Source of the DNA: an uncultured Methanosarcinales archaeon
GTDB lineage: Archaea; Nanobdellota; Nanobdellia; Woesearchaeales; UBA12501
DNA: 64,000 nucleotides
Direction: 5' to 3'
Assembly: GCA_964397315.1 (NCBI GenBank)
Contig: CAYNHV010000002.1
Coordinates: 23,167 to 87,166 of the forward strand
A program made the position numbers and the translations under genes. Positions 264 to 63,880 of the stretch are shown piece after piece (within the stretch, counting starts at the first letter, position 1; the number at the start of each line of letters is the position of its first letter). The notes beneath the pieces were generated by a model. That model did no database searches, had not been told where the DNA came from, and worked only from the letters and a program-made list of their open reading frames with translations.

Positions 264-430
264 TGTTCTTCCTTTTACTCCTGTATCCTCCTCATTTAAA
301 AATATTTTTAAAAGCTTAAACCTCCTTCAGCAAGCCCGTATATGGAGCAAACAAAAAATTATTATAAGCCAGGCTCATACAGCCGCAAAATTGCGGGCAG
401 GACAATATCCGTTGTCCTGCAGGGGGTGAT

Positions 431-2017: not shown

Positions 2018-2039
2018 TATAAAATTTGCGGATTGAGTA

Positions 2040-4329: not shown

Positions 4330-5083
4330 GGCCTGTCTTTTTTCCAGAATCAGAATTATCCTTTTTAATCTCCTTTCCCTTCCCTGCTTCAGCCTTTGGC
4401 TCTTCCTTTTTTGTCTCTTTGCTCTCTTCCGGCTCTTCTTTTTTCTCCTGAGCCTTTCCTTCCTCTGCGGGGATTTCTTCTTTTTCCGCAGGCTTCACCC
4501 CGCCCCCTTCAAAAGACAGGATTCTTATCTCGCATATTTTTATTGGATAAATCTTCTTGAGCGCGTCCTTGAGGCTCTTCTGCAGCCTGTTATGCATCAC
4601 TTCCTGCACAAGAATGTCTCTTTTTGTGTTTTTTATCCTGTTTTTGAGGAATTCCATTGTTTTCTTTCTCAGCGCTGTTGCTGCAGAACCCTTCACATGG
4701 CCGGATGTTATGAGAAGCGGCTTTATTCTTGCCTTTTTGCTGTCAGCTGTCGTGCAGATGAAGGAGCAGTCAATCCTCTCCTTGCCTCTCCTGACAAATC
4801 TCTTTATTGAGGATGGGTTTATCTCAAAGCTTTTTACGCTGGTGTAGGCTGTCTCCCCCATAACCCGGTCTATCTCAAACACCACGTTCATGTTCTGCTT
4901 TTTCATGTCCCTGGTGAGGTGCATGAGGTTTGAGGAGATTGTCCTTCCTGCGACTATGGCAGGGTCCAGGGATGGTGTTTCTCCCACCACCTGCTCATTG
5001 AATATCTTGGGAGCCAGCACCCTGTACCATCTCTTCCTCTTCCAGGTATCCACAACCTGCCCTTTTGGCTTTGCTTTTGCCAT
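4241..5083 (-). CDS. rps3ae: 30S ribosomal protein S3Ae (eS1) with a long Lys/Glu-rich C-terminal tail
   Basis: N-terminus MAKAKPKGQVVDTWKRKRWYRVLAPKIFNE is the S3Ae signature. The core is ~205 aa, followed by ~75 aa of K/E-rich low-complexity sequence. Confidence 0.85.
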   Translation of the reverse strand: MAKAKPKGQVVDTWKRKRWYRVLAPKIFNEQVVGETPSLDPAIVAGRTISSNLMHLTRDMKKQNMNVVFEIDRVMGETAYTSVKSFEINPSSIKRFVRRGKERIDCSFICTTADSKKARIKPLLITSGHVKGSAATALRKKTMEFLKNRIKNTKRDILVQEVMHNRLQKSLKDALKKIYPIKICEIRILSFEGGGVKPAEKEEIPAEEGKAQEKKEEPEESKETKKEEPKAEAGKGKEIKKDNSDSGKKTGHEKQGSKAEEGSSQKSKSREKSEGSDPSG

Positions 5084-5155: not shown

Positions 5156-7940
<2,785 letters not shown>

Positions 7941-18967: not shown

Positions 18968-19858
18968 TCATGCAAGCTTCATGCCCCTCATGACTTCCTT
19001 CAGCTTCTCAATGTTCTCATCCCTCATTCTGCACAAGGGCAGCCTGTATCCTCCTGCAGGCAGGCCCTTGATGTTCATTGCCTCCTTTATGGGGATTGGA
19101 TTTGTCTCAAGGAAGCACGCCTTGAAGAAGGGCAGCAGCCTGAAGTGCTCCTTTCTTCCCCCCTCCATGTCTCCATTCAGCATTGCGTCACAAAGGCCCG
19201 CCATCTCTGCAGGCATTATGTTTGAGGTCACTGATATAACACCATGGCCTCCGAGGGCCATGAGGGGGAATGTCATTGCATCGTCTCCTGCAAGCACCCT
19301 GAAGCCAGGTATCTGGTGGATAACATCTGTTATCTGGCTTATGCTGCCTGAAGCCTCCTTCACTGCCTTGATGTTGTCAAGGTCCGCAAGCCTTTTCATC
19401 ACTGGAGTCTCTATGTTCTTCCCTGTCCTTCCTGCTATGTTGTATACTATGATGGGTATGCTGACATTGTCATTCACTTCCTTGAAGTGCCTGTATATGC
19501 CCTCTTCAGTGGGCTTGTTGTAGTACGGCGTCACCACAAGGAGCGCGTCTGCTCCGAGCTCTTCTGCCTTTTTTGATTCCTCAACTGTCTTCTCAGTGCT
19601 GTTCGTCCCTGTCCCTGCTATTACAGGCACTTTTCCTTTTGCCTCCTCCACTGATGCCTTTACAAGCTGCTCCTTTTCCTCAGGCTTTAGAGTGGGTGTC
19701 TCTCCTGTTGTTCCAAGCACCACAAGCCCTTTTATGCCGTTCTTCATCTGGTATTTCAGGTTCTCCCTGAAACCCTCATAATCAACTTCCCCGTCTTCTG
19801 TGAAGGGTGTTACCAGGGCTGTCATCACCCCTTCAAGCTTCAGTTCTGCCATAAACAA
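18968..19858 (-). CDS. dapA: 4-hydroxy-tetrahydrodipicolinate synthase
   Basis: DHDPS family: GTTGE, Schiff-base lysine region (IKAVKEASG); 296 aa. Confidence 0.9.
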   Translation of the reverse strand: MFMAELKLEGVMTALVTPFTEDGEVDYEGFRENLKYQMKNGIKGLVVLGTTGETPTLKPEEKEQLVKASVEEAKGKVPVIAGTGTNSTEKTVEESKKAEELGADALLVVTPYYNKPTEEGIYRHFKEVNDNVSIPIIVYNIAGRTGKNIETPVMKRLADLDNIKAVKEASGSISQITDVIHQIPGFRVLAGDDAMTFPLMALGGHGVISVTSNIMPAEMAGLCDAMLNGDMEGGRKEHFRLLPFFKACFLETNPIPIKEAMNIKGLPAGGYRLPLCRMRDENIEKLKEVMRGMKLA

Positions 19859-47339: not shown

Positions 47340-47936
47340 ATGAGAGTACTCGCGTTTGTTGACACTCACGGAAGCACAAAGGCCCTGAAGGCAGTGGCTG
47401 ACAAGGCAAAGAAAAAGGATGTTGACATTCTCATATGCGCGGGAGACGTGACAATCTTTGAGCAGGAGCTTGAGAAGATAATAAAGAAGCTGGACAAGCT
47501 CGGCAAGCCCGTGCTGATAATACCCGGCAACCACGAGTCTGAGGAGAGCCTGAGAAAGGCCACGAAAAAGACAAAGAACATGATCTACATCCACAGGGGC
47601 ATGCTGAAGCTCAAGGGATACACTTTCATAGGCTTTGCAGGCGACGGATTCGCGCTTGACGACCCTGAATTTGAGAAGTGGGGCAAGAAAGTGAAGAAGG
47701 AGCTGAAGAAGAAGGAGAAGGTCGTTCTCATAACCCACGCTCCCCCGCACAAGACAAGGCTTGACCTTGTGATGGAAAGCCACTGCGGGAACAAGGCAGT
47801 GAGGAAGTTCATAGAAAAGGTTGACATTGTCCTCGCAATCTCAGGCCACATCCACGAGACAGCAGGAGTAGAGGACAAGGTGAAGAACACCAAGGTGGTC
47901 AACCCCGGCCCTTACGGCAAGGTGTTTGAGATATGA
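47340..47936 (+). CDS. Calcineurin-like metallophosphoesterase
   Basis: MRVLAFVDTHGS, ILICAGDV, IPGNHE, THAPP and ISGHIHE phosphoesterase motifs. The ORF starts at 47286; the likely Met start is 47340. Confidence 0.8.
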   Translation: MRVLAFVDTHGSTKALKAVADKAKKKDVDILICAGDVTIFEQELEKIIKKLDKLGKPVLIIPGNHESEESLRKATKKTKNMIYIHRGMLKLKGYTFIGFAGDGFALDDPEFEKWGKKVKKELKKKEKVVLITHAPPHKTRLDLVMESHCGNKAVRKFIEKVDIVLAISGHIHETAGVEDKVKNTKVVNPGPYGKVFEI

Positions 47937-47945
47937 GTTTATGCC

Positions 47946-48764
47946 TCACAATGTCTGCTCAATCTTTCCGGCATATTCTATTCTCCTGAGCATATGATTC
48001 AAAAACTGTCCCCTGAATTCCTTTGTTCCGGGGCTGAGTGTTGCCTCAAGCAGGTTCACGTAATTTGAGTATTCCTCAGGAAGCTTCGCATCCAGGGCAT
48101 TCATGCACAGGGTGTCAAGATGTAACGCCTTCTTTATCCTTGCTGTTTCCGCGGCGTAATCCCCAAGCGCCTGGTGCCACAATGCCCAGGCGTTCCTGAA
48201 AAAGCTCTCTCTTCCGCTGTCAGTTTCCTCAAACAGGGAGCAGTAGAAATCATTCTCTGCAGCAATGAGATGGGAGGAGACGTAAAGCCTGTTGAGCGCT
48301 TCAAACATATGCACTCCAAACCCCATGACCAGCTCGTCAAATTTTCTTTCCGGAAGCTGGACTTGCTCGTCATAAAGGTATGACCTTGTTATCTCCTGAG
48401 CGAATATGCTGAACATCAGCCTGACGGACTCGGGAGATAAATCCTCATGATCAGCTTCTTCCTCAAAACACCAGAACGCATACTCTCCTATTATCTCTTG
48501 AGACCTCCTTATGCCAGGAGGTATGTCAGCAGCAGATGAAAGCTTGTCCCTGAAGATGCTGAACCTGCTGCTGTTTATCTCAGCAGGCCCGGTCTCCAGG
48601 GCGTAAATGAGCTCCCCTGATAATCTTGAGGGATACCTCTCCTTCTGCTCTTTCTGCGCTTTCCCCAGCTTTTCCCTGAGCAGCTTATGCCTCACCTTAT
48701 GCTCTGCTAGCTTCCTGTTTGTGTCCTCAAGATAGCCGTCAATAACGTCAAAAGCCATTTTCAC
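47946..48764 (-). CDS. Hypothetical protein (272 aa) coupled to taw1
   Basis: Start overlaps the taw1 stop by 4 nt. No recognisable motifs. Confidence 0.4.
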   Translation of the reverse strand: MKMAFDVIDGYLEDTNRKLAEHKVRHKLLREKLGKAQKEQKERYPSRLSGELIYALETGPAEINSSRFSIFRDKLSSAADIPPGIRRSQEIIGEYAFWCFEEEADHEDLSPESVRLMFSIFAQEITRSYLYDEQVQLPERKFDELVMGFGVHMFEALNRLYVSSHLIAAENDFYCSLFEETDSGRESFFRNAWALWHQALGDYAAETARIKKALHLDTLCMNALDAKLPEEYSNYVNLLEATLSPGTKEFRGQFLNHMLRRIEYAGKIEQTL

Positions 48765-49779: not shown

Positions 49780-49932
49780 GCGCCAGTAGTCTAATGGTTA
49801 GGATATGGCCTTGCCACGCGTTAGATTTGCAAGCAAATCCACTGGGTTTGCGCTTAACGCGCAAACAGGCTGTGGTCCGGGTTCAAAAGGGTTTGGGAGA
49901 GATCCCCCTCAATGAAAGTCCCGGCTGGCGCA
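49780..49932 (+). tRNA. tRNA-Gly (anticodon GCC) with two introns
   Basis: Acceptor stem GCGCCAG/CTGGCGC with discriminator A. D-arm GTCT-AATGGTTA-GGAT. Anticodon stem TGGCC/GGCTG with loop TTGCCA. A ~50-nt intron containing two hairpins (gatttgc/gcaaatc and gtttgcgc/gcgcaaac) interrupts the anticodon loop. T-arm CCGGG-TTCAAA...CCCGG carries a second ~30-nt insert. Coordinates are approximate (±2). Confidence 0.55.
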
Positions 49933-49974
49933 TGTTTACTCATCAGATTCCTGAAACAATCACCACTACTCCGC

Positions 49975-50910
49975 TTATTGAAGATGCTTAACCTGCATCT
50001 CCTCGAGTTCAGACTGCAACTTCTTCTCTTTTTCTGCCAGCTCATCAATCCTTGCCATTGCTTCATCATAAGCTTCCCTGTCTCCCTCTCTGGATGATTT
50101 CTCAGCTTTCTGGTTTGCCTCCAGCAGGTTCAGGTATAACCTTATCAGCTCAGCTTTTTTTGATGCTGCCATTCTTAGCTCAGAGAAATTTGTTGATGAG
50201 GGAAAGAATTCAGGATTAGGTATTTTCTGTTCTGCAAGCCTTCCGCATATGCCTACAGTCTCATTTAAGCTGTTCAAGCTGATATTAAGTTGTTCCTCTG
50301 CTTTCTCGTTATACTCCTCAAAGGTTATGTTCTTGCGGGAGGTGTAATCCTGATTCAATCTCTGGAATCTGGAGAATGCCCTGCTGCTTCTTTCGGTCAG
50401 CTCTGTGATGTTCTGCATTGAAGGGATAAAAACCTCATCATAATCCCTGAAAGCAGAGTAATACTCAGAAGAACTATGGTCCACTATGCCTATTGTGTGA
50501 GGTATATTTGTGAAGAACAACAGACCTAAGAGTATTATGACAACAGCATAAGAGGCAGCCCTGATAACAAACAGCTTCTTGTTGTAGGTTGAGAGCCTCC
50601 TGTAGCTCTGAAGGATGATTATTGAGCTGATTATGAGAACGATGATTATTAAAGCGAAACCGCCTACTAAAGCGTAGAGGATGGGAGTGATCTTCATCAT
50701 GCTGAAGTTTCCTGTCTTTGAGCTGATATAGAATCTCAGAAAGAAAAGCACTGCGAGAATCACCACAATTATTGCAACAGAGACTCCGGCGAATATTCTG
50801 GTGTTCCTTATCCTCTTTTTCAGGGTCTCGTCATTGTAGGGCTGGTCCTTAATCTTCTGGTCAAGGTTTGAGAGGTCCGGCGCCCCACCGCCCTGCTCCT
50901 CATCTTCCAT
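49975..50910 (-). CDS. Membrane protein with a C-terminal coiled coil (311 aa)
   Basis: Several TM helices followed by a long coiled-coil region; unknown function. Confidence 0.4.
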   Translation of the reverse strand: MEDEEQGGGAPDLSNLDQKIKDQPYNDETLKKRIRNTRIFAGVSVAIIVVILAVLFFLRFYISSKTGNFSMMKITPILYALVGGFALIIIVLIISSIIILQSYRRLSTYNKKLFVIRAASYAVVIILLGLLFFTNIPHTIGIVDHSSSEYYSAFRDYDEVFIPSMQNITELTERSSRAFSRFQRLNQDYTSRKNITFEEYNEKAEEQLNISLNSLNETVGICGRLAEQKIPNPEFFPSSTNFSELRMAASKKAELIRLYLNLLEANQKAEKSSREGDREAYDEAMARIDELAEKEKKLQSELEEMQVKHLQ

Positions 50911-50988
50911 TGGTCATGAGAAAGCCTGTTTATTATATAAATATTTCTGAGAAAATTTTATAAATAGGGTCTTTTTAAGCGGGAATAA

Positions 50989-51198
50989 GGGCCATTAGCT
51001 TAGTCTGGCAACTGGTTACGCTCAGTTGACACGCAAACGCAAGAGGGGCGTAAAACTGCGTTTTAGCCCCTCGACGAACGTGAGATTTGAGCGTCAGTTG
51101 GGCAATTGGAGCACTGCTCTTATATGACTGTGTTCCGCGCAATGCTGGACACTGCTTGAGCAAAGCAGCGGTCGGGGGTTCAAATCCCCTATGGCCCA
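50989..51198 (+). tRNA. tRNA gene with two large introns (D-loop ~95 nt and anticodon loop ~38 nt); anticodon appears to be UAU (Ile) but is uncertain
   Basis: Acceptor GGGCCAT/ATGGCCC with discriminator A. T-arm GGGGG-TTCAAAT-CCCCT. Anticodon stem CTGCT/AGCAG with loop CTTATA|intron|A. D-stem GCTT/GAGC flanks a ~95-nt insertion. 210 nt minus ~133 nt of introns gives ~77 nt mature. Confidence 0.5.
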
Positions 51199-51290
51199 TT
51201 TTTTATTCGTACCACCGAGCAAAGCGAGTGTGGTACCTGATGGCCGGGTCAAGGAAGAAGACCCTTGGTTCTGAATCCCCTATGGCCCAT
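51183..51290 (+). repeat. att-like direct repeat: the tRNA 3'-end 17-mer AATCCCCTATGGCCCAT occurs twice (51183..51199 and 51274..51290)
   Basis: Exact 17-nt duplication. The second copy is preceded by a degenerate copy of the tRNA 3' half (gagcaaagc...ggttctgaatcccctatggccca). Confidence 0.6.
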
Positions 51291-51399
51291 GGAATAAAGG
51301 CAAAACGCCGATGAAGTCGGCTTTTTGCCTTTTTATATGCCTGATAATCCCGATGAGCTTGCGAGTCGGGATTATCTATGCATTTTATTTCCCATGATA

Positions 51400-51700
51400 T
51401 ATTCCACCTTATATGCATTTGTTTTGGGTGATTCCTCATAGTAATTCCCGCCCTCACTTTACAACCAACAGGCAGGTTCATACCTTCTCCAACTGCACAA
51501 CTCCCTGCTTCTCGCCCCAATAAGCCCGCCCAATGATATGCTTAAAGTGCTCTGAGTGGGTTTGTGCGCTAAGCATATGTGAGGGGGTTGGGTGGCGGGC
51601 GAAGAGGTTTGTATAGCTAAACATGGCGGCGGCAATGCCAGGAGGAATCAGATTTTTATTAGACTAAACTCAGGAGGCATCCCCTTACATTAAATGAGCA
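51400..51700 (+). repeat. Modular intergenic repeat element, copy F
   Basis: Short tandem-unit remnant (tgattcctcatagtaattcccgccc). Core ccccaataagcccgcccaatgatatgcttaaagtgctctgagtgggtttgtgcgctaagcatatgtgagggggttggg at 51519..51590, then gctaaacatggcggcggcaatgccaggagg. Preceded by the hairpin taatcccgatgagcttgcgagtcgggatta. Upstream of the tRNA at 51842. Confidence 0.8.
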
Positions 51701-51841
51701 GTATTTTTAACTCATAAAGAGAGCAGGGCAAAGTAAGAACCCCAGACATTCTAAGAATATTGTAATAAGGCCTCCAATCCTGCCATACGGGCTTTCAAAA
51801 GCAAAATATTTTAAAAGGGGTGTTTAATCCCTACCCCCACT

Positions 51842-51976
51842 GCCCCGGTAGTGTAGAGGTTCCAGAAGGAGGAACCGCACAACCCGGCCAATCATTTCGG
51901 ATTTTCGAGGTCGGAAATCTCCACATGGTTTGGCTGAAAACATCCGAAGACCTGGGTTCGAATCCCGGCCGGGGCG
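51842..51976 (+). tRNA. tRNA, probably Arg (anticodon UCG), with multiple insertions
   Basis: Acceptor GCCCCGG/CCGGGGC with discriminator G. T-arm CTGGG-TTCGAAT-CCCGG. D-stem GTGT/GCAC encloses the hairpin insert ggttccagaaggaggaacc. Anticodon stem CGGAT/ATCCG with loop TTTCGA plus a ~33-nt intron. An extra ~16 nt lies between the D and anticodon arms. Coordinates are approximate. Confidence 0.45.
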
Positions 51977-52040
51977 TATTCCTTCTGGTTATATGCCCTT
52001 ACCTTTATTAAGGAGCTTGAAAACTGAAGAGGTGAGGAGA

Positions 52041-53255
52041 ATGGCTGAGAAGCTTGATATCCACGACTATGATTTACAACTGAAGGGTTGTAAAAAGAGA
52101 ATTGAGGGCGCGGAGCTTTCCGATGCCAACAAGAAGCTTATTCTGGCTTATGAGAGGGCGAGGCAGCTTGATGGGACTGCCATCAGCACGAGGGTGAGGA
52201 CAATGTACTGCCTGCTTGATTTTGCGCTCTTTTTGGGCCGGGATTTGGAAGGGGCTGGCAAGGATGATGTTAAGGAGTTCGTTTATCGTATTGAGAGCAA
52301 GCCCGATTACAGTGTGTGGACTAAATCCAAGTACAGGGGAGTGGTTAAGAAGTTCTTTAAATGGCTCAGGTATGGGGACGAGTATCTGTCCAGGGATGAG
52401 TATCCTGACGAGGTAAGGTGGATTAGGGTTCACGTCAAGAAGAAGGATGAGCCGAAGATTTCCAGGACTGACCTGCTGACAGAGGATGAGATTGAGAAGC
52501 TGATTGAGGCTGCTGACACTCCAAGGGATAAGGCTTTTATAAGCCTGCTCTCTGACTGCGGGGCGAGGATTGGCGAGATAGGCAATCTCAGGATTAAGGA
52601 CGTGTACAGGGATGAGTTCTCATTCCTGGTTCACATTAGGGGCAAGACAGGGGAGAGGGAGGATGCTGTGGTTTACTCAAACCCTTACATTGCCGGCTGG
52701 CTCAACTGCCACCCGATGAAGGATGACAGGGAAGCTCCGTTGTGGGTGAACATGAGAAAGGGCAGGTACCAGTACAGGCAGATGAAGTACAACACCCTGA
52801 GGAGCCTCTGCAGGGAGCTTTTTCAGAAGGCTGGCATAAGGAAGAAGTTTAACCCTCACATTTTCAGGCACAGCAGGGTTACGATAAACATGTCCAGGGG
52901 GATTATGAACGAGGCCCAGGCCAAGGCTTATTTTGGCTGGACTCCTGACAGCAAGATGTTCGCCAGCTACGCGCACCTTGTGAGCAAGGACGCGAATGAC
53001 GCCGTACTTGAGGCTGCGGGCATGAAAACCAAGAGCAAAGAGGGATTGAAGCTGAGGCCAAACACGTGCAAGACGTGCCATTATTCCAACTCTCCCGGGG
53101 CGAACTTCTGCGAGAGATGCGGCAGGCCGCTGAATGCTAAGACCTCGCTCATGTACAGCCAGATGAAGCAGGATGCTTATGAGATTCTGAACAGGCTTAA
53201 GGAAGATCCTGAGTTTATGGAGCTGGCAAAGAGAAAAGTTGAATGTTTAAATTAA
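52041..53255 (+). CDS. int: Tyrosine recombinase/integrase with a C-terminal zinc ribbon
   Basis: Catalytic region HIFRHSRVT...YAHL (R...HxxR...Y). N-terminal SAM-like core-binding domain. C-terminal CKTCHY...CERCGR ribbon. ORF from 51930; Met start ~52041. Confidence 0.85.
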   Translation: MAEKLDIHDYDLQLKGCKKRIEGAELSDANKKLILAYERARQLDGTAISTRVRTMYCLLDFALFLGRDLEGAGKDDVKEFVYRIESKPDYSVWTKSKYRGVVKKFFKWLRYGDEYLSRDEYPDEVRWIRVHVKKKDEPKISRTDLLTEDEIEKLIEAADTPRDKAFISLLSDCGARIGEIGNLRIKDVYRDEFSFLVHIRGKTGEREDAVVYSNPYIAGWLNCHPMKDDREAPLWVNMRKGRYQYRQMKYNTLRSLCRELFQKAGIRKKFNPHIFRHSRVTINMSRGIMNEAQAKAYFGWTPDSKMFASYAHLVSKDANDAVLEAAGMKTKSKEGLKLRPNTCKTCHYSNSPGANFCERCGRPLNAKTSLMYSQMKQDAYEILNRLKEDPEFMELAKRKVECLN

Positions 53256-53257
53256 AT

Positions 53258-53914
53258 TTAAATCTCTTGCCTTATTTCATTTTTGCTTATTTGTGAGATT
53301 CGTTGGATATTCATCAGCATGAAACCTGCATTTCTCATTTTCTTTTCCGTAGGAATGTCTGGTGTTTCATATATTTTCTTGCGTATCTCATTAAATCCTT
53401 TTTTTGTTTCGTTTTTCGCGGTTTCGGCTGATATTCCATCTTCTATAATCCTTCTTATGCCCCTATTGAATTCTTTCGCTTGCGATTTGTAGCTTATATA
53501 CTTTTCAGGTAGAAAATAACATTTATCATTATATCCTAAGCAATATTTAGCGCATTTCTCTACCGCATTTTTACCCAATAGTGTTATTGTCTTACATGCA
53601 ACTAAAATGAGCTTTTTATTCAGAAGTAAATTGATATCTTTTAGGTCGATGATGCTTCTTTTGATTCTTTTTTCCTTGTTCTGCCAGAAAAACATTTGCT
53701 CTTTTGTGCCATGACTGAAGATCATTAAGTAACCATCATTGTTCTTATCTCGCTTAAGAATTTCTTTTAATTTCTTTATTTCATCTACCGATTTTATTTC
53801 GTAAAAGCTGATGCTGTTATTTTCTAGGACGGACTTTATGTGTTTTGCACAAATAGATGCAAATTGTTCACCTAAATCGGCTTCCGAGTTTTGTCTGTGT
53901 ACTAATATATTCAT
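53258..53914 (-). CDS. Hypothetical protein (218 aa), AT-rich
   Basis: ORF only; low GC relative to host genes. Confidence 0.35.
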   Translation of the reverse strand: MNILVHRQNSEADLGEQFASICAKHIKSVLENNSISFYEIKSVDEIKKLKEILKRDKNNDGYLMIFSHGTKEQMFFWQNKEKRIKRSIIDLKDINLLLNKKLILVACKTITLLGKNAVEKCAKYCLGYNDKCYFLPEKYISYKSQAKEFNRGIRRIIEDGISAETAKNETKKGFNEIRKKIYETPDIPTEKKMRNAGFMLMNIQRISQISKNEIRQEI

Positions 53915-55231
53915 TTATTTTGATGATTCTCGCTGTAGAGAGTATAGGTGGTAATCTATAATGCCATACAGATAGGATTGTGCGAATTCTTTTCCTTCTT
54001 CTGTATTATTTTTAACAAGTTCATATATTTTTCTGGGAGTATAGGCTTCGCCTTCGGAGGTGTATACAATTGGCTCATCTGCTTCTGAAGAGTCAATCCA
54101 ATTTTCAACAACCCTCAAAAACATCTGTTTGATGAATTCATTTATAACAGCATTATCTATACTATTATCACTCTCACCGTCTCCTTGTTCGTTTTCCATA
54201 TCGCTTTCTTCTTTAGTAGCATTAATATAAAAATGTTGCGTTTCCTTCGTTTTTCTTTTTAGTTTTTCTTCGGGAACATTTTCAAAAATTGCCTTAGTCT
54301 TCTTCTTTACTTCAATGTCATATTCCGGCTCAGGATACTGATAAAGCACGACATTCTTAATTACCTGGCCACAATATCCCTTGTAAAGGTCATCTTCACA
54401 ATTTCGCAATCCTTTTCCCGTGTCAAACAGATCATAGCAGATATTTGCTTTTATCGGCTGATTTTCTTGCTCATCAATGCCTTCAAATGGTGACCCGTTA
54501 AAACTTTTCTGGTTGTAGCGGATTATCTTTTTATCAGGGAACTTTTCTTTAAAAATGTCTTCAAGACCACGCGGGCCTCTGGGGCCCAGTTCTTTGTTTA
54601 CCAAGCATATGTGAGTGAAGGAATTTCTGTTGTTTCCATTCATTAGATTGGCATAGTACTCAACCAGGCATTCGGCGTCTTCATTTTTATCAGTCCAAAA
54701 ATCAAACCATATAAGGTAATCTTTTAGGTTCCCCTTGGATACTACAAAGGTTTCGTCATGTCTTGGCACCGCCATGTAGAAGGGCATTTTATAGCCTAAG
54801 TCAAACTTTTCCTTTCTTTCTCTTGCGTGAATAAAATAATCTCCGATATATTGGTATAGATTCATGAATTTATTCATCTCGATGGTATACATGGGGTCAT
54901 GTGTGTCGAGGAAAGCATATATATTGGAGGCAAGCTTAGAGAATAAATCCTTGAAGGCTTCAAGCTTGATTGCATATGTCTCCGTTAGCAAACTGCGCAT
55001 TTTGAACAAACATAGGCAAAATGACTCATAATAGTTAAAAATTTCAGATCTTGAAGACAGATATAACATTTTTGCACTGTCCGTGTTCAGTGAGCGGCTG
55101 TGGCCATTCTCAGAACAAAACTCCCAAGTGTCTTTTATGAAATCGTCAAAGGTGTTATTCTCGTAATTGTTGACAAACCACCCAAGAGTTTCGTTTACTT
55201 TAGTTTCAGCACGTTGTTGGTCAAGTATCAT
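53915..55231 (-). CDS. Hypothetical protein (438 aa), AT-rich
   Basis: Stop abuts the start of the downstream gene (53914/53915). No recognisable motifs. Confidence 0.4.
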   Translation of the reverse strand: MILDQQRAETKVNETLGWFVNNYENNTFDDFIKDTWEFCSENGHSRSLNTDSAKMLYLSSRSEIFNYYESFCLCLFKMRSLLTETYAIKLEAFKDLFSKLASNIYAFLDTHDPMYTIEMNKFMNLYQYIGDYFIHARERKEKFDLGYKMPFYMAVPRHDETFVVSKGNLKDYLIWFDFWTDKNEDAECLVEYYANLMNGNNRNSFTHICLVNKELGPRGPRGLEDIFKEKFPDKKIIRYNQKSFNGSPFEGIDEQENQPIKANICYDLFDTGKGLRNCEDDLYKGYCGQVIKNVVLYQYPEPEYDIEVKKKTKAIFENVPEEKLKRKTKETQHFYINATKEESDMENEQGDGESDNSIDNAVINEFIKQMFLRVVENWIDSSEADEPIVYTSEGEAYTPRKIYELVKNNTEEGKEFAQSYLYGIIDYHLYSLQRESSK

Positions 55232-55259
55232 TATGACACCTCCATTCCATAAAATTTAT

Positions 55260-55586
55260 TTATGGAATATCAACCCCATGCTTTCGTAAAAATTTATCGA
55301 GTTGCTCCGGGGTAGAATTGGAAACTTTCTTTTCTAAAAGGTCAAGAGGGACCGAATCGAGTATAGTTCCAATGGAACTAAGGTAGTAGCCGAATCTCTT
55401 GAGTTTATCAATAAGCTTAAGCCTTAATACATCTTCTTCGCTATAAAGATATCTTTGATTGTTATGATGCTTTTTTGGCTTTAAAAGATTCAAATCTTTA
55501 TAACGTTGAATTGTAGGGTCGGAAACACTAGTATCAGCCTTTTCCTTTAGTTGACTTAGGCTTAAATTGTACTCTAACTCTTTCAT
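55260..55586 (-). CDS. MerR-like HTH transcriptional regulator (108 aa)
   Basis: RYLYSEEDVLRLKLIDKLKRFGYYLSSIGTIL resembles the MerR wing/dimerisation helix. Confidence 0.45.
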   Translation of the reverse strand: MKELEYNLSLSQLKEKADTSVSDPTIQRYKDLNLLKPKKHHNNQRYLYSEEDVLRLKLIDKLKRFGYYLSSIGTILDSVPLDLLEKKVSNSTPEQLDKFLRKHGVDIP

Positions 55587-55901
55587 GTTGTTCCTTACCT
55601 ATAAGCTATTAGACCTCATATCTAATCTATTAGATAGCACATTTTGTAGCTAAAGTCAACAACTGAGCCGAGATTTTCTCGTTGGCCCCGACACTACAAA
55701 CAGAAATGTATGTTGTGAATGCCGGTAGTGCCACTCGCAACCGGCTCATTGGATTTCGTACTATATAGCATTGAAATCTCAGGGTTTCAAGTAGAAGCAG
55801 TAGGCACCAGCTTTTGACGTGTCGTGCCTCTTGGCATGTCCCAGCCCATATCCTGTTTTGCCCTTACTTTTATTTAGCTGCTTTTCCATCGTGGAATAAC
55901 T

Positions 55902-56303
55902 ATGGGAGAGGATGATGGCGGTGTTTTTCAGGACATGATCTCCGGGAGGATTAAGGACATCCGGGAGGCCATTGACGAGATTGAGGGGGAGATAAAGCAG
56001 AGGCGGGACATTGATGAGCGGGTTCTGGAGGAGATTAGGGCTGAGATTCTGAAGGTTCGCAATCGCATTCTGGAGGTTGAGCAGTTCACAGGCTCTTCCC
56101 AGTCCGGTGAGCTTCCGGGCGTGGATACTCTGGAGCGGGAGGTTGTGAGCCTGGAGGGTGAGAAGCGCATGGAGTCTGTCTCCTGCTGGAGGGATTTGAC
56201 GAGCCTTCGGAAGGAGCTGAGGCTTTACATGAGGGAGCTGAATGACCTGTTGAGAAAAGCGAAGATGGTGAGGCCGGATGCAGGAAGTGGAGAAGCTGCT
56301 TAA
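55902..56303 (+). CDS. Coiled-coil protein (133 aa) upstream of the ATPase
   Basis: Heptad-rich, Glu/Arg-rich sequence. Overlaps the ATPase gene start by 26 nt. Confidence 0.4.
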   Translation: MGEDDGGVFQDMISGRIKDIREAIDEIEGEIKQRRDIDERVLEEIRAEILKVRNRILEVEQFTGSSQSGELPGVDTLEREVVSLEGEKRMESVSCWRDLTSLRKELRLYMRELNDLLRKAKMVRPDAGSGEAA

Positions 56304-58320
56304 GAAGCTTGAGCCTCAGCTCGGCGGGAGGGCGGATGAGATTTACAGGGTTTACCTGCTGGAGGATTCCAGGGGGCGGAATGAGATTCATCAGTATCTT
56401 ATGACGCTTTACAATCAGAGCCTTTCCACTCCGTTGGATGACAAAGTTGTGCTGGTTCCTCCGCCGGGGGATTTGGCAGGGGGTGAGATGCCCATAGCCA
56501 CGGTGAGGTATGCTGACCGCGACCTGTATGAGTTCTCCCTGAGGAGGGGTGAGCTGCCCATGCATTGCCTTGTGGTGGGTGATACGGGCAGCGGGAAGAC
56601 GAATTCAATCTACGCTCTGATTTCCAATCTTATGCTGCAGAGGATTCCTTTTTTGATTTTTGATTGGAAGCGTGAGTTCAGGAGGATACTCAATTCCGAG
56701 AGCTGCTCTGATGTTCTTGTTTTTACTGCCGGGGGTGAGGCAAGTCCTTTTTACTTCAATCCCAGGATTGCGCCGAAGGGTGTTGATCCTGAGGTTTATC
56801 TCAAGAAGGAAGTGGATAATATCGCCTATGCCTACTTTTTGGGAGAGGGTGTTGGGGAGCTTTTGAGGGAGGTTCTTCATGAGACAAATGAGGATTACGG
56901 CGTTTACTCCGGTGATTTAAAGGAATACCCGAATTACTTTGATGTTCTGCAGAAGCTTGAGGGAAGGAAGCCAAAGGGCAGGGAGCTTTTATGGTATCAG
57001 TCCACTCAGAGGGCGTTGCGCGCCCTTACCTTCGGCAAGTTCGGGAAGGCCATTAACATAAGGCAGGATGTGGATGTTGAGTCCCTGCTGGAGAGGAATG
57101 TGATTATTGAGCTGGACGGGCTTAACAAGGCTGACGGCAAGTATATCATGACCTCATTGCTTTCCAGGATTTACTTTTACAGGCTGGCTCATGCTCACGA
57201 GAATAAGGGCTTGCACGCGATTATTATTGATGAGGCGCATCATTTGTTTTTGAGAAAGCCTTCTTATGCGCAGGGTGAGGAGCACATCACGGATATTCTG
57301 CTGAGGGAAGCCAGAAGCCTGGGGGAGTGTCTTGTCCTGTCTGACCAGTACCCTCACATGCTCACATACACTGCCTTTGGTGTTTATACCAAGATTGTGA
57401 TGAGCCTGGGTAATCGCACTGATATTAACCTTGCAGCGGATATTCTGCTGCTGGGTAAGGATGAGAGGGAGTGGCTTGCCAAGCTGCCAATAGGCTCGGC
57501 AATAGTGAAATTAAAAGCAAGGTATCCTTCTCCTTTTCTGGTTCATTTCCCGCTCATGAAGCTTCCAGAGGAGCCTGTTACTGACGATATTGTGAGGGAG
57601 AGGATGAAGGGGTATTGGGAAGAACAGAAGGTTATTCCGGTTATTCCAGGCCAGCAAGAGGGTTATTCCGGCCCTGTTAAGCCAGAGGGGGTTGTTCCGA
57701 AAGGTGATAAGGGTGGTGCGGAAAGAGCGGAATATCTCCTGCTCCTTGATGTTTTGAGGTTTCCTCTCTCCTCTACTGTTAAGAGGTATGAGAGGCTGGG
57801 CTTTAGCAAGAGGGCGGGCAATGACGCAAGGGGCACTCTTGAGGAGCAGGGGCTTGTGAGGGCTGTTGATGTTCCAACAAAAAAGGCAAGGGTGAGGCTT
57901 CTGGAGCTTACTGACAGGGGCAGGGAGCTTCTAAAGTCCCGGGGTGAGGACATAAGCAATTCCATGAGGTTTGGGAGCGTGGAGCACCTTTACTGGGTTG
58001 CCATACTCGCAAAGGAATCCAGGATAACGATATTTTGCGAGGGCAGGGGTTTTGAGCTTGAGGTTGAGCACGCTATTGGCGGTGGGAAAACTGTTGACCT
58101 TGCGGCAGTAAAGGGGGAGAGGAGGATTGCCTTTGAGGTTGAGACAGGAGCTTCTGATGCTGTATCCAATGTCCGTAAGTGTTTGGAGGCCGGTTTTGAG
58201 AGGGTTTACTGCCTTCCCACATCGCACACTGCAATGAAGAAGATATCGCGGGAGCTGGAAAAGGCCGGGCTTGCAGGGGATAAGAGGGTTAAGCTGAAGC
58301 ACGTGAAAAAAATGTTTTGA
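56278..58320 (+). CDS. HerA/FtsK/VirB4-like P-loop ATPase (AAA_10/DUF87-type), probable DNA translocation or conjugation ATPase
   Basis: Walker A VVGDTGSGKTNS and Walker B IIIDEAHHLF (DEAH). C-terminal wHTH-like region plus a possible PD-(D/E)xK-like region. 680 aa. Confidence 0.6.
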   Translation: MQEVEKLLKKLEPQLGGRADEIYRVYLLEDSRGRNEIHQYLMTLYNQSLSTPLDDKVVLVPPPGDLAGGEMPIATVRYADRDLYEFSLRRGELPMHCLVVGDTGSGKTNSIYALISNLMLQRIPFLIFDWKREFRRILNSESCSDVLVFTAGGEASPFYFNPRIAPKGVDPEVYLKKEVDNIAYAYFLGEGVGELLREVLHETNEDYGVYSGDLKEYPNYFDVLQKLEGRKPKGRELLWYQSTQRALRALTFGKFGKAINIRQDVDVESLLERNVIIELDGLNKADGKYIMTSLLSRIYFYRLAHAHENKGLHAIIIDEAHHLFLRKPSYAQGEEHITDILLREARSLGECLVLSDQYPHMLTYTAFGVYTKIVMSLGNRTDINLAADILLLGKDEREWLAKLPIGSAIVKLKARYPSPFLVHFPLMKLPEEPVTDDIVRERMKGYWEEQKVIPVIPGQQEGYSGPVKPEGVVPKGDKGGAERAEYLLLLDVLRFPLSSTVKRYERLGFSKRAGNDARGTLEEQGLVRAVDVPTKKARVRLLELTDRGRELLKSRGEDISNSMRFGSVEHLYWVAILAKESRITIFCEGRGFELEVEHAIGGGKTVDLAAVKGERRIAFEVETGASDAVSNVRKCLEAGFERVYCLPTSHTAMKKISRELEKAGLAGDKRVKLKHVKKMF

Positions 58321-58444
58321 TGGTGAGAGCATAGCAGCAGGCAATATTTTCAGGGCGCTGGAGCCGCTTCAATACCTGAACATAGGCGGCATATATTCGC
58401 AATACTCGGCAATCCTTGACTTTTTCGTTTTCCTGATACTTTTC

Positions 58445-59503
58445 ATGGGTCTTTCCAGGGCTGCATTCGGGAAGAGGTTTGAGGGCAGTGGCGGGAAGGC
58501 TGTCACCATTGGCGTGGGAGTTTCCCTTGCTCTGGGCTTGTCTGCAGCTGAGGCAAAGTTCGGCTTTAATCTTGGCTCTTTTGGTGTCTTTGCTCTTGGA
58601 ATTATAGTTGTTGCTTTCGGGCTTTTATTTTTCTATTTGCTCTCTGCCCTGGGAGCGCACAAGAGCACGGCTGCTGCTCTGTCATTTCTTATAGCCTATT
58701 CCTTCCTTAATTCCATTTCGGGAAAGCTCACTCTAATGATTCAGAAGAAGTTTCCAATACTGAATCTCCTGTTTTTGGCCTCGCTTGTTTTTGTGATTAT
58801 CAGGGGTGTTTCGTTTCTGGGTGTTGGTTCAAAGCTTAAAACATCTGGGAAGAATATGCTGAGGAAAGGCTCTGAGTATGCCCGCCATATTCCGTTGAGG
58901 GAGGAGAAGCTTGAGAGGAAAACACAGCGCAGGGAAGCAAAGGGTATAAGCAGGGAGAGGAAAACAAGCTCCAGGATGTTGAAACAGCTTCAGGAGATAA
59001 GGGAGCTAATCAAAGAGCATGGCGGAAGCGAGAAGGGCAGAAAGGCCATTGTGGAGCAGATTGAGAGCCTCTCCACAGGCGAGAACAAGCTGGTTCAGAA
59101 GCTCGCGCATTTAAAAGAGCTGGACAAGCAGCTTGAGGAGCTTGATATTCTGGCGGTGCGGAAGCTGAAAGAGGAGCAAAGCGAAGTGCCCGATGAGTTA
59201 AGGGCTGAGATAGAGAAGGAAATCAGGGCTGAGAAGGACAAGCACGGGCTGAGCAGGAAGATGGAGGGGTATGAGAGCCGGATAAAGGCCTCAGTTGACG
59301 GCTTCAACCGGGCAATGCTCTCCTGCATTGAACGCCTCGGAGAGAACCGCATTGCAGAAGCATTGCAGGCCGTGGACGAGGCCATAAGCTGCCAGAAGCG
59401 GATAGAGGGCCTGCTTGCTGAGATGGAAAGGACAGGCCGGATAATGAAGGGCCTGACAAAACGAGAGTACAAGAGCATGAAACGCACTAAAAAAGCTGCG
59501 TGA
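58445..59503 (+). CDS. Membrane protein with a C-terminal coiled coil (352 aa)
   Basis: 4–5 N-terminal TM helices and a Lys/Glu-rich coiled coil. Confidence 0.4.
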   Translation: MGLSRAAFGKRFEGSGGKAVTIGVGVSLALGLSAAEAKFGFNLGSFGVFALGIIVVAFGLLFFYLLSALGAHKSTAAALSFLIAYSFLNSISGKLTLMIQKKFPILNLLFLASLVFVIIRGVSFLGVGSKLKTSGKNMLRKGSEYARHIPLREEKLERKTQRREAKGISRERKTSSRMLKQLQEIRELIKEHGGSEKGRKAIVEQIESLSTGENKLVQKLAHLKELDKQLEELDILAVRKLKEEQSEVPDELRAEIEKEIRAEKDKHGLSRKMEGYESRIKASVDGFNRAMLSCIERLGENRIAEALQAVDEAISCQKRIEGLLAEMERTGRIMKGLTKREYKSMKRTKKAA

Positions 59504-59512
59504 GGTGAAAAA

Positions 59513-59692
59513 ATGGCAGAAGAAGAAAAGAAGTTTGAGGACAAGCCGATACTGGAGAGCCAGTATCGTAAGAGCAAGGACGGAAAATACCTGATACACA
59601 GGGTGACCATCACCACCATAAAGCCGGTGAAGTATCTTGAGAAGGTGCTTGAAGGCTCTACAGGTGATGAAGCCGATGACTTGGAAATCTAA
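59513..59692 (+). CDS. Small hypothetical protein (59 aa)
   Basis: MAEEEKKFEDKPILESQYRKSKDGKYLIHRVTITTIKPVKYLEKVLEGSTGDEADDLEI. GAGGTGA SD 7 nt upstream. Confidence 0.3.
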   Translation: MAEEEKKFEDKPILESQYRKSKDGKYLIHRVTITTIKPVKYLEKVLEGSTGDEADDLEI

Positions 59693-59895
59693 TAAATGGG
59701 CCTGATGTAAAACAATGGTCTTATGCTGTTTTTTTATTTTTTACTTTTTCTTCATATGTATTTACAAACCTCCGATTTTCTAATTTCGTATACGGCACGG
59801 CAACCCCATACATTTTGTTTTCGGCTGAAGCCTGAAAACAAATGAGGGGTTTGCCTCAAAGGCCGTAATTAAAAAATTAACGGAGGTTGAAAAAA

Positions 59896-60069
59896 TGAAT
59901 GAAGTAAAAAACCAAAAACAGAAAAACTTTAGGATAAAAGTTATAACATCAGGCAGGACAGGCCATAAGCTTGTCATAATCGAAGATGAAAGAGACAGAA
60001 ACAGGGTTGACATCTATTCTCTAAGATACTTCGAAGCGATTGTGAAAAGAATTAACAGTTGCTGCTAAT
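59896..60069 (+). CDS. Small hypothetical protein (57 aa)
   Basis: MNEVKNQKQKNFRIKVITSGRTGHKLVIIEDERDRNRVDIYSLRYFEAIVKRINSCC. GGAGG SD upstream. Confidence 0.3.
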
Positions 60070-60135
60070 TTTTTCTTCTTATTCTTTATATTTTTTTTAG
60101 ACGCTATTTCTTCATTATACGAAGGCTTAAAAAAA

Positions 60136-60170
60136 GGGCTGGAGTCTCCCCCAGCCCTTTGCTGTTTTGG
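60136..60170. terminator. GC-rich hairpin GGGCTGG-AGTCTCCC-CCAGCCC flanked by A- and T-tracts, between convergent genes
   Basis: 7-bp perfect stem flanked by AAAAAAA on the 5' side and TTTGCTGTTTT on the 3' side. A bidirectional terminator-like structure. Confidence 0.4.
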
Positions 60171-60185
60171 TTGTTCGGTTGCGGG

Positions 60186-60503
60186 TTAGCTTTCGGCTTG
60201 TTTGCCTTTGCCGTTCAGGTGGATTTTCTGGGCGATGATTTTCAGCCTGCTTCTGTTCCGGCCTTCGTTGTCCTGGAATCTTTCCTGTTTGAGCCTGCCT
60301 TCAACCTGCATGGCCTTTCCCTTGCTGATGTACTGTCCGGCTATGTCCGCCAGTCCGTTGAAGCACGTTATTGGCAGGTAGCTGACGTTGTCGTCGTAGT
60401 TGCAGGCCAGCGTGAAGGTGGCGATTTTCAGGCCTTCCGCTTCCTTGTACTCCGCGTCTTTTGTGGCCCTTCCGCTTACGATTGTTTTGTTGAGGTCTCT
60501 CAT
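60186..60503 (-). CDS. ssb: Single-stranded DNA-binding protein, bacterial OB-fold type
   Basis: LNKTIVSGRATKDAEYKEAEGLKIATFTLACN...GQYISKGKAMQVEGRL...SRLKIIAQKIHL follows the bacterial SSB pattern; 105 aa. Confidence 0.7.
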   Translation of the reverse strand: MRDLNKTIVSGRATKDAEYKEAEGLKIATFTLACNYDDNVSYLPITCFNGLADIAGQYISKGKAMQVEGRLKQERFQDNEGRNRSRLKIIAQKIHLNGKGKQAES

Positions 60504-60671
60504 CTTCTTCTCTCCTTTCCGAGGGTTAGGGGTTTAGTTTGGTATGTTGTAAATATTTTGTGTGGCGAGGGGTTTCTTCCCCCCTCGCCGTTTCGCAGCT
60601 GCTCCACCCGCAGAAGGGGCAGTGGAAGCATCCTCCGGCTGGTATGAGCCTTGCTCCGCAGTCCGGGCATC

Positions 60672-61487
60672 TCATTTCTGGCTCCTTTCCTCCCATCTGC
60701 TCAGGATTTTCCTGCTGGTCTGGTGTATGGCCTCAAGGGATTCCTCAAGGCTGCAGGACTTCTGATAAAGGGCTAAGTATTTCTCCGAGTTCGTCTCCGG
60801 GATTCCGAGAGCCTGGGCGACGACGTAGGCGGTGGCTTCTGCCTCAAGCTCCTTCTGCTCCCTGGTAAGCTTTGGCCTTGTCTCCGGGTTCCAGTGCAGC
60901 AGCTCGTGGGCAAGCTCGTGAATGAGAATTAAAGCTTTCTCAGTGGGGTTCTTGCTGCTCTGGATTTTGATTTTTCCGTTGGTTGAGACTCCCTCGCAGT
61001 TGGCAAGGTCTGCGAATTCAACCTCAATATTCCTCTCCCCGGCCAGTTTGAGGAGCTTTTCCAGTGCCCCGGCGTGGGTGTCATCTATGGGCTTGAATTC
61101 TATCTCCGGCATCTCCTCGCCTTCTGTCTGGCTGATGTCAAAAACGCAAACCGGGAAAAAGAAGGAAACGTCCTTCTCAACCTCAATCTCCTCTCCTGTC
61201 TCCGGGTCAACCTCTGTCTCCTTCTTCTTATAAGTGGATGGGGCAAGTATGCTTATTCCTTTTTCTCCTTTTCTGACCTGCCTTCCCAGCTTCTGCCATG
61301 TCCTGTATCCCGCCACTCTCGTGGCCTGCGGGTTCTGAAAGTGAATCAACAGCGTGTTCCGCCATGAGTAGGAATGAAAATGCGCCATGCAGTCCAGGAC
61401 AGCCCTGAACTCCTCTGAGGACTGAATCTCCCTGATTCCCTCGCTAAGCTTCTTTAACAACGCCTTTGTCTTCTCTCTGCCTTTCAT
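60672..61487 (-). CDS. ardC: ArdC-like antirestriction protein (ssDNA-binding N-domain plus HExxH metalloprotease C-domain)
   Basis: N-terminal domain FHSYSWRNTLLIHFQNPQATRVAGYRTWQKLGRQVRKGEKGISILAP is the ArdC-N/DUF1738 signature. C-terminal LILIHELAHELLHW. ORF extends to 61541; Met start taken at 61487. Confidence 0.75.
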   Translation of the reverse strand: MKGREKTKALLKKLSEGIREIQSSEEFRAVLDCMAHFHSYSWRNTLLIHFQNPQATRVAGYRTWQKLGRQVRKGEKGISILAPSTYKKKETEVDPETGEEIEVEKDVSFFFPVCVFDISQTEGEEMPEIEFKPIDDTHAGALEKLLKLAGERNIEVEFADLANCEGVSTNGKIKIQSSKNPTEKALILIHELAHELLHWNPETRPKLTREQKELEAEATAYVVAQALGIPETNSEKYLALYQKSCSLEESLEAIHQTSRKILSRWEERSQK

Positions 61488-61488
61488 T

Positions 61489-61716
61489 TTATAAATCCTC
61501 CTCTCCGAAATTGAAATGAAGCTGCTCTGAATTAACCTCAACCTTCGACAGCCTCACCCGGCTGCCCTTGACCTCAACCTTGAAACCTGCCAAAAACTGC
61601 ATCCCTGTTTCCTCAACGAATTCCATCACCTCGCTTTCCAAAGCCGGGATGTCCTCGGCCAGCCTCTGCCTGAAATAAAGGCTTCTCAAAACCCTTGCTG
61701 CCTGCTTAACCGTCAT
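61489..61716 (-). CDS. Small hypothetical protein (75 aa) upstream of the ardC-like gene
   Basis: ORF only; stop immediately adjacent to the ardC start. Confidence 0.3.
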   Translation of the reverse strand: MTVKQAARVLRSLYFRQRLAEDIPALESEVMEFVEETGMQFLAGFKVEVKGSRVRLSKVEVNSEQLHFNFGEEDL

Positions 61717-63403: not shown

Positions 63404-63880
63404 TTATCGTTTTTTGTCGTTCATTTGTTTTGATAATGAAGGTGTCAAAATAAGGGGGGTAGAAGATTTTAGAATTCGAAATTTGAAAAATATATTTATG
63501 CAGCACATTGTTATACCAAATAGATATATGAAAATAAAAATATCAATAATCTTTACTGATAAGGATGATGGTTGAATCGAAAAGGCTGAACAAAAAAGGA
63601 TGTGGAAGAATGAGAAGAACATTAAAGAAATAATAGAGGTGAGAAGCACTTCAATCGAACCGGGTAAACGGTCGGATATGTTCTTTAATTTTAGCATCTC
63701 TTTTGAGGGGCCAAGTGGCTGACGACAATATTTTTCAAACCTATATTGTTCAAAATAGTATTGACTGCATAGATTTATCAAAATGCTCATCAATGACCAT
63801 GACGCAATAAACGCTCCCAAGCCAGTTGCAAAAATAAGGAATGGTAAATTGCCGGGTAATAGCGAGACTGCTTTATCCAT
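63404..63880 (-). CDS. Membrane protein (158 aa)
   Basis: Four predicted TM helices; AT-rich. Confidence 0.35.
   Translation of the reverse strand: MDKAVSLLPGNLPFLIFATGLGAFIASWSLMSILINLCSQYYFEQYRFEKYCRQPLGPSKEMLKLKNISDRLPGSIEVLLTSIISLMFFSFFHILFCSAFSIQPSSLSVKIIDIFIFIYLFGITMCCINIFFKFRILKSSTPLILTPSLSKQMNDKKR

Follow-up and report, generated by a model that had tools for sequence, protein, structure and literature searches.

The window analysed here, a stretch of 64,000 nucleotides (nt) of contig CAYNHV010000002.1 (assembly GCA_964397315.1), carries on its + strand, between positions 49780 and 51976, three stretches that are each bounded by a perfect 7-bp acceptor stem and in which the arms of a tRNA are separated by extra sequence. 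These are three real tRNA genes, tRNA-Gly(GCC), tRNA-Ile(UAU) and tRNA-Glu(UUC), interrupted by two introns apiece, six altogether (Table 1). We put at about 93% the probability that they are functional genes forming a conserved cluster beside the TYW1 gene in Woesearchaeota (DPANN superphylum), with two introns of the bulge-helix-bulge (BHB) type in each. Every gene has an intron at the canonical position 37/38; the others lie in the T-loop of tRNA-Gly (59/60) and in the D-loops of tRNA-Ile (19/20) and tRNA-Glu (15/16). Removal of the six introns leaves sequences of mature length (72, 75 and 75 nt), which ARAGORN at default settings calls as tRNA-Gly(gcc), tRNA-Ile(tat) and tRNA-Glu(ttc) with regular cloverleaves. 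The original prediction, made from the letters of the window, had placed all three genes with exact coordinates and ends, and its view of the inserts as archaeal introns at canonical and non-canonical positions is borne out by BHB geometry at every junction and by intron-less orthologues.

Table 1. Coordinates of the features in the window. H, central helix; h and h', exon-exon and intron-intron flanking helices; arrows in the bulges mark the cut.
Feature	Position	Strand	Description
TATA-box-like element TATATAAA	49746..49753	+	read from sequence; 27-34 nt 5' of tRNA-Gly; position fits an archaeal promoter
tRNA-Gly(GCC) gene	49780..49932	+	exons 49780-49816, 49867-49887, 49919-49932; spliced 72-mer, ARAGORN default Gly(gcc)
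tRNA-Gly intron 1	49817..49866	+	50 nt, 37/38, strict hBHBh', H UUGC/GCAA, bulges CA↓C and AC↓A, h=7, h'=7
tRNA-Gly intron 2	49888..49918	+	31 nt, T-loop 59/60, relaxed hBH, H UUCA/UGAA, bulges AA↓A and AG↓U
TATA-box-like element TTTTATAAAT	50956..50965	+	read from sequence; 24-33 nt 5' of tRNA-Ile; putative function
tRNA-Ile(UAU) gene	50989..51198	+	exons 50989-51008, 51106-51124, 51163-51198; T-run after gene; spliced 75-mer, ARAGORN default Ile(tat)
tRNA-Ile intron 1	51009..51105	+	97 nt, D-loop 19/20, strict hBHBh', H GUCU/GGGC, bulges GG↓C and AA↓U, h=3, h'=7
tRNA-Ile intron 2	51125..51162	+	38 nt, 37/38, BHB with h=5, H CUUA/UGAG, bulges UA↓U and CA↓A
Duplicate of tRNA-Ile 3' end AATCCCCTATGGCCCAT	51274..51290	+	exact, 17 nt; gene fragment; its start lies 91 nt downstream of that of the original copy
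TATA-box-like element TATTTTAAAA	51807..51816	+	read from sequence; 26-35 nt 5' of tRNA-Glu
tRNA-Glu(UUC) gene	51842..51976	+	exons 51842-51856, 51883-51907, 51942-51976; spliced 75-mer, ARAGORN default Glu(ttc)
tRNA-Glu intron 1	51857..51882	+	26 nt, D-loop 15/16, relaxed HBh', H GUGU/GCAC, bulges AG↓A and AA↓C
tRNA-Glu intron 2	51908..51941	+	34 nt, 37/38, strict hBHBh', H UUUU/GAAA, bulges CG↓A and AC↓A, h=7, h'=7
Tyrosine integrase with zinc ribbon	52041-53255		begins 65 nt after tRNA-Glu
MerR-type regulator	55260-55586	-
HerA/FtsK-like ATPase	56278-58320
ArdC-N/M78 peptidase protein	60672-61541	-

According to the BHB rule applied to the junctions, two runs of four bases pair with each other, one in the exon (-5 to -2 relative to the 5' splice site) and one in the intron (-5 to -2 relative to the 3' splice site); this leaves on opposite strands two 3-nt bulges that are cut after their second base, and the motif is flanked by pairing of exon with exon (h) and of intron with intron (h'). 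Examination of each junction for the motif, as had been proposed, gives a fit in six of six: the central helix is paired at four of four positions, each of the two bulges has 3 nt, and a flanking helix measures 5 bp or more. As a background, 22,356 arbitrary junction pairs within the three genes were scored; all four pairs of the central helix form in 2.8% of them, and 0.10% combine this with a flanking helix of 5 bp or more. Half of the six motifs (Gly 37/38, Ile 19/20 and Glu 37/38) are strict. An identity as ribozyme introns of either group (I or II), which are hundreds of nucleotides long, was considered for the inserts and rejected on their lengths of 26-97 nt and on the lack of any Rfam ribozyme match; between 49500 and 52300, even at E<=10, Rfam returns no family except tRNA.

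Comparison with related genomes provides the second line of evidence. Contigs encoding TYW1 homologues were compared, six of which have the tRNA cluster, whole or in part, upstream of TYW1 (Table 2). Each absence of an intron in these relatives is one clean gap matching a predicted intron. Five of the six introns are missing in this exact way from one or more syntenic orthologues, which fixes their boundaries to the nucleotide independently of the structural model. Against the full Rfam tRNA model the orthologues score 43.6-61.5 bits, with 61.5 and 59.9 bits for the intron-less tRNA-Gly of L004 (5853-5924) and L039 (512-583), 56.2 bits for the intron-less tRNA-Glu of L004 (5114-5188) and 48-54 bits for tRNA-Ile orthologues with a single intron. 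Where introns are shared, pairing in the central helix is kept despite base changes (GUCU/GGGC vs GCCU/AGGC in the Ile D-loop, CUUA/UGAG vs CUUA/UAAG in the Ile anticodon loop, UUUU/GAAA vs UUUU/AAAA in the Glu anticodon loop). In the more distant relatives (L003, L006-L010, L013-L037) synteny upstream of TYW1 is lost, so that they carry no information on the tRNA genes.

Table 2. Introns of the tRNA cluster in the window and in six related loci, with the identity of the TYW1 protein to that of the window (+, present; -, absent).
Locus	TYW1 identity	Gly 37/38	Gly 59/60	Ile D-loop	Ile 37/38	Glu D-loop or D-arm	Glu 37/38
Window		+	+	+ (97 nt)	+	+ (15/16)	+
L002	80%	-	+	+ (98 nt)	+	-	outside coverage
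L038	74%	+	-	+ (30 nt)	+	-	+
L012	73%	+	-	+ (30 nt)	+	-	+
L039	73%	-	-	-	+	+ (21/22, 42 nt)	-
L005	71%	-	+	outside coverage	outside coverage	outside coverage	outside coverage
L004	70%	-	-	-	+	-	-

The hint given in the original prediction that multiple tRNA introns point to, among other lineages, some DPANN archaea agrees with the gene content of the window. Archaeal genes for TYW1 (wyosine synthesis), ribosomal protein S3Ae, class I LysRS and PTH2 are encoded in it; the best matches of its TYW1, whose gene adjoins tRNA-Gly, are metagenome-assembled genomes of Candidatus Woesearchaeota and Nanoarchaeota, and the nearest syntenic contig is that of Candidatus Woesearchaeota archaeon isolate BLK3-3.bin.38. 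A contig identical to that of the window occurs in Logan run SRR7048227.

Several observations weigh against functional, spliced genes. The other three motifs are relaxed (Gly 59/60 hBH, Ile 37/38 with h'=1, Glu 15/16 HBh'), and no helix lies directly beside the 5' bulge of the Ile anticodon intron. The boundary of that intron is set solely by the BHB rule and cloverleaf logic, comparative support being absent because every relative carries it. Position 21 of the mature tRNA-Ile is G, where A is usual. Minimum-free-energy folds give the BHB motifs only in part, as is usual for BHB, and Pfam scans of the 60 open reading frames in the window found neither EndA nor RtcB.

Standard gene finders mostly fail on the unspliced genes. 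On the unspliced window ARAGORN at default settings reports no tRNA gene, and Rfam yields a single partial tRNA match (51100-51198, 30.6 bits) that relies on a false acceptor stem. The intron mode of ARAGORN (-i) imposes models with one intron that are wrong (Val-CAC on the third gene, Cys-ACA on the second), and with a lowered threshold gives false hits inside protein genes, at 19511-19730 (dihydrodipicolinate synthase gene) and 47916-48047. This failure, together with the tRNA fragments and the integrase that adjoin the genes and indicate a recombinationally active region, is what could be expected of decaying pseudogenes whose insertions are never removed, with functional copies elsewhere in the genome. 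Such decay is nevertheless highly improbable: the exons are identical (Ile, 100% with L004) or nearly so (Gly, about 97%) to orthologues in genomes whose TYW1 protein is only 70% identical, every insertion has exact BHB geometry, promoter-like TATA boxes are still in place, and the relatives hold the same cluster with introns that are differently combined and invariably in BHB geometry. Nor were other tRNA genes found in the window, where a search for a T-arm plus acceptor stem gave the second and third genes and a weak hit at 63669-63768.

For tRNA-Gly(GCC) the architecture had been anticipated correctly, a 50-nt intron in the anticodon loop followed by one in the T-loop, of 31 nt. The first intron corresponds to one clean gap of 50 nt in L002, L005, L004 and L039 and has a homologue of 48-50 nt in L012 and L038. 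At the 59/60 intron h is the 5-bp T-stem itself and the adjacent h' is missing; once this intron is removed the T-loop UUCAAAU is restored. The two relatives in which the same site is occupied (L002 and L005) share the 3' end UGAAAG of the intron and diverge in its interior.

The second gene also has the structure that had been described for it, with a D-loop intron (97 nt), an anticodon-loop intron (38 nt) and a UAU anticodon. Its anticodon loop, CUUAUAA with U34, is the same in the window and in L002, L004, L012, L038 and L039, and by this sequence the tRNA-Ile of the window is of the rare UAU type; the archaeal tRNA-Ile2 (CAU, agmatidine type) is excluded by U34 in place of C34. The rarity claimed for this anticodon in archaea holds, since it was found in 2 of 167 genomes, those of Korarchaeum (with an intron) and Nanoarchaeum (PMC6000648), and also in ARMAN, which are without TiaS (PMC3239211). 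The long D-loop intron has a structured interior. Registers of 97, 95 or 93 nt are all BHB-compatible in a scan of this intron, and 51009-51105 was retained, the register being fixed by the intron-less L004 and L039, which read GCTTAG..CTGG↓T(T)GGAGC. The copy in L002 is 96% identical, and the shorter intron of L012 and L038 has homologous ends.

The anticodon-loop intron of tRNA-Ile, in which h' is displaced, is the sole intron common to every relative (6 of 6 loci covering the gene). Its sequence is unchanged in L002 (100% identity) and matches that of L004 at 97% over 32 nt; its central helix reads CUUA/UAAG in L004 and L012 and CUUA/GAAG, with one mismatch, in L039. The whole gene with both introns is 98% identical to positions 538-748 of L002, its introns being nearly as conserved as its exons, whereas DNA identity between the same two genomes is 78.5% in the flanking membrane-protein gene and 82% in the TYW1 gene. 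This similarity, far above that of the flanking genes, suggests selection on the intron or a recent exchange of the gene. An exact-pattern scan of genome contigs with the Ile 3' exon matched the L002 contig alone. Metagenome contigs scanned with the 22-nt 3' end of tRNA-Ile gave no match; L004, which has that sequence, lies outside the collection.

In tRNA-Glu(UUC), two of the three insertions that had been proposed are introns, the D-loop insert and the anticodon intron, here of 34 nt. What had been taken for an extra segment between the D-arm and the anticodon arm, CCCGGCCAAUCAU, belongs to the tRNA itself as its true D-loop and the 3' strand of its D-stem, since intron-less orthologues read GTGTAG-CCCGG(T/C)CAATCAT directly. 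The three-insertion model draws on GCAC (51877-51880), which is able to pair with GUGU in the manner of a D-stem; these four bases are intron sequence and pair with exon GUGU as the central helix of the splice motif. A different solution is given by ARAGORN -i, which calls at 51841-51977 a tRNA-Val(cac) with a single 43-nt intron in the anticodon loop, i(37,43), and a long extra arm, but it requires a mismatched D-stem and a 21-nt extra arm foreign to tRNA-Val. Both models have a practically negligible probability: L004, L012, L038 and L039 read GTGTAG directly followed by (C/T/A)CCGG(C/T)CAA..CA(T/C) and have the anticodon loop UUUUCGA, from which it follows that the third gene is tRNA-Glu(UUC) with nothing between the D and anticodon arms, and the two-intron model is the one that ARAGORN calls at its default threshold.

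The 15/16 motif of tRNA-Glu has an h' of 6 bp (GGUUCC/GGAACC) and no h, and its minimum-free-energy fold reproduces H, the 5' bulge and h'; L002, L012, L038 and L004 have a clean gap at this site. The D-arm intron of L039 (tRNA-Glu at 252-368, minus strand) has H GGCC/GACC with one mismatch and an h' of 9 bp, in a gene that is without the anticodon intron. The D-arm introns of the window and of L039 look like independent insertions into the same arm. At the 37/38 site, which is empty in L004 and L039, L012 and L038 have a 46-nt intron with H UUUU/AAAA. The 47 nt directly upstream of the gene are 96% identical to L002. A separate observation concerns the anticodon intron of the window, which is complementary to the exon of the D-loop and D-stem over 11 bp with one bulge (51884-51895 vs 51925-51936), running into CUGA at 51934-51937, a pairing that the minimum-free-energy fold favours over the splice motif. 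It is not conserved in L012 and is probably due to chance. A reading of this intron as a C/D-box-like guide was discarded, as it has no C box and the complementarity is lost in L012.

Directly observed are the points where exons and introns meet, the BHB geometry there and the orthologues without introns; transcription, cleavage, ligation and the enzymes involved are proposed on the model of established archaeal tRNA processing. A TATA-like element lies about 24-35 nt upstream of each gene and would, as a promoter of its own, drive each gene separately. In the precursor, four exon bases would pair with four intron bases and leave the two 3-nt bulges on opposite strands; EndA would then cleave after the second base of each bulge and a ligase of the RtcB type would join the exons. 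Trimming of the ends would be followed by addition of CCA, a step proposed because none of the three genes encodes it. Narrow-specificity α4 and α'2 endonucleases require the strict hBHBh' motif. Since three junctions have a single flanking helix beside the motif, an EndA of broad specificity is implied, of the kind known from other DPANN and TACK archaea. In other DPANN lineages broad specificity has been inferred for α4 enzymes with an extra (L3) loop (PMC5829648), and the ε2 EndA of ARMAN-2 cleaves in vitro both a 59/60 relaxed hBH intron and an intron-bearing tRNA-Ile(UAU) (Fujishima et al. 2011, PMC3239211).

The window thus holds further instances of a known phenomenon: multi-intron tRNAs, 59/60 introns and intron-bearing tRNA-Ile(UAU) have already been described in DPANN and Thermoproteales. 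Disruption of tRNA genes is raised in DPANN, including Ca. Woesearchaeota RBG_13_36_6 and Pacearchaeota, and incomplete tRNA sets in such lineages were noted in the same survey (Kaneta et al. 2018, PMC5829648). With ARMAN-2 (Micrarchaeota) and the surveyed DPANN (PMC3239211, PMC5829648) the window shares the superphylum, the occurrence of canonical and non-canonical introns with some multi-intron genes, a 59/60 T-loop intron with a relaxed hBH motif and a tRNA-Ile(UAU) with a 37/38 intron; it differs in the genes and intron sequences, in having three adjacent two-intron genes and in the length of 97 nt, unusual for a D-loop intron. The best-known tRNA genes with multiple introns are those of Thermoproteales (Sugahara et al. 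2008 and Fujishima et al. 2010, summarised in PMC4033280), which have up to three BHB introns per gene, strict or relaxed, at many non-canonical positions, and for which intron transposition has been proposed. The same summary describes fast intron gain, with related intron sequences at different sites, and an α2β2 endonuclease with a Crenarchaea-specific loop. Unlike these members of the TACK phylum, the window has introns that are mutually dissimilar (no two are alike), and the sole paralogous copy was seen in L002. Eukaryotic tRNA-Ile(UAU), such as the three-intron gene of Cyanidioschyzon merolae (PMC9602550), belongs to the same isoacceptor type, has interruptions in both the D-arm and the anticodon loop and always retains the anticodon-loop intron, but is eukaryotic and processed by a different endonuclease.

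The value of the locus lies in annotation and comparative material, not in a new kind of system. Default tRNA finders miss the three genes, and the genome would seem to be without Gly-GCC, Glu-UUC and a decoder of AUA; misses of this kind would skew estimates of completeness and codon capacity for DPANN genomes. Woesearchaeota are added to the short list of archaea using tRNA-Ile(UAU). The locus also gathers in little space naturally occurring alleles with and without introns from close relatives, a series suited to the study of BHB intron gain and loss and of the role of integrating elements.

Fragments of tRNA genes accompany the cluster. Besides the duplicate of the tRNA-Ile 3' end in the window (Table 1), 3' fragments lie downstream of tRNA-Ile in L002 (336-358) and L004 (5567-5584) and downstream of tRNA-Glu in L004 (about 4988-5010); these 3' fragments look like scars of site-specific integration. 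As its sequence is already present in the full tRNA-Ile, the fragment at 51274-51290 is no piece of a trans-encoded tRNA, and split or permuted genes were dismissed, the exons of each gene being colinear within 135-210 nt. At 2040-2130 (minus) L002 has GCGCCAGTAG (bases 1-10 of tRNA-Gly) upstream of the full gene, followed by a partial homologue of the 97-nt Ile D-loop intron. This extragenic homologue matches at 92% over 25 nt and has one hairpin with a compensatory change of A-T to T-A. In L012, at about 1960-2040 (minus), the promoter and first 17 nt of tRNA-Ile are duplicated upstream and followed by unrelated structured sequence.

Directly 3' of tRNA-Glu an integrated mobile element occupies 51977-61541 and probably more, with the integrase, regulator, ATPase and peptidase genes of Table 1. 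In L004, L012 and L038 a 16S rRNA gene follows the tRNA cluster where the window has this element. No repeat of the tRNA-Glu 3' end that would mark its far border was found within the window, and scans of viral contigs with the core of the Ile intron and with the att-like 3' end gave no match. By analogy, the element resembles the mobile-element model of intron gain put forward for Caldiarchaeum (2012, PMC3293823), where alleles with different intron numbers, a tRNA 5' fragment upstream and a linked element encoding a recombinase were likewise described; that case concerned one gene in one population, whereas here three genes are involved across several related genomes and the fragments include 3' ends 91-180 nt downstream of a full gene.

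These surroundings bring up the question whether the insertions are scars of mobile elements or recombination that only resemble BHB introns and are removed otherwise or tolerated in the mature RNA. The homologue of the Ile intron outside a tRNA body in L002, beside a duplicated tRNA-Gly 5' end, the 3' and 5' fragments and the integrase flanking the genes, and the differences in intron content between close relatives would all suit such scars. But a mobile origin is compatible with removal by EndA, a link that has been published (PMC3293823; Fujishima 2010, cited in PMC4033280), a working tRNA cannot tolerate a 31-nt insert in its T-loop or a 97-nt insert in its D-loop, the BHB register demanded by EndA is exact at all six junctions, and the inserts match no group I or II intron or other Rfam family. 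Scars of this sort are accordingly most unlikely, and BHB introns remain the preferred interpretation.

As to the history of these BHB introns, five vary in combination among genomes whose TYW1 proteins are 70-80% identical, and L002 and the window differ in two introns while their flanking genes are 78.5-82% identical in DNA. Gain and loss through recombination with mobile elements would fit, because presence varies, tRNA fragments and an extragenic intron-like copy exist and an integrase element is adjacent. A functional requirement for the Ile 37/38 intron would fit as well, this intron being in every relative and 97-100% identical, vs about 80% for the DNA of flanking protein genes. Taken jointly, a rapid gain and loss of five introns by this route and the retention of the sixth for its function form a tentative picture, which we consider possible and rather doubtful as a whole. 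In eukaryotic tRNA-Ile(UAU) the intron is needed for pseudouridylation of the anticodon (PMC9602550, PMC11912914), and one may speculate by analogy that an intron-dependent modification of U34 would prevent the reading of AUG.

Two minor observations concern other sequences of the window. A family of hairpins with stems ending in CC(A)GA...GAGTCGG and followed by T-runs occurs at 51215-51233, 51308-51320 and 51349-51370, with four copies in L002 and two in L005; in the window and the six related loci all matches except the one at 16959-16975 of the window lie just downstream of tRNA genes or fragments. Rfam has no match for this family, whose members may be terminators or a small repeat element. 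Finally, the DNA gyrase B gene (5517-7925, minus) holds an intein, with an Intein_splicing domain at residues 451-599.

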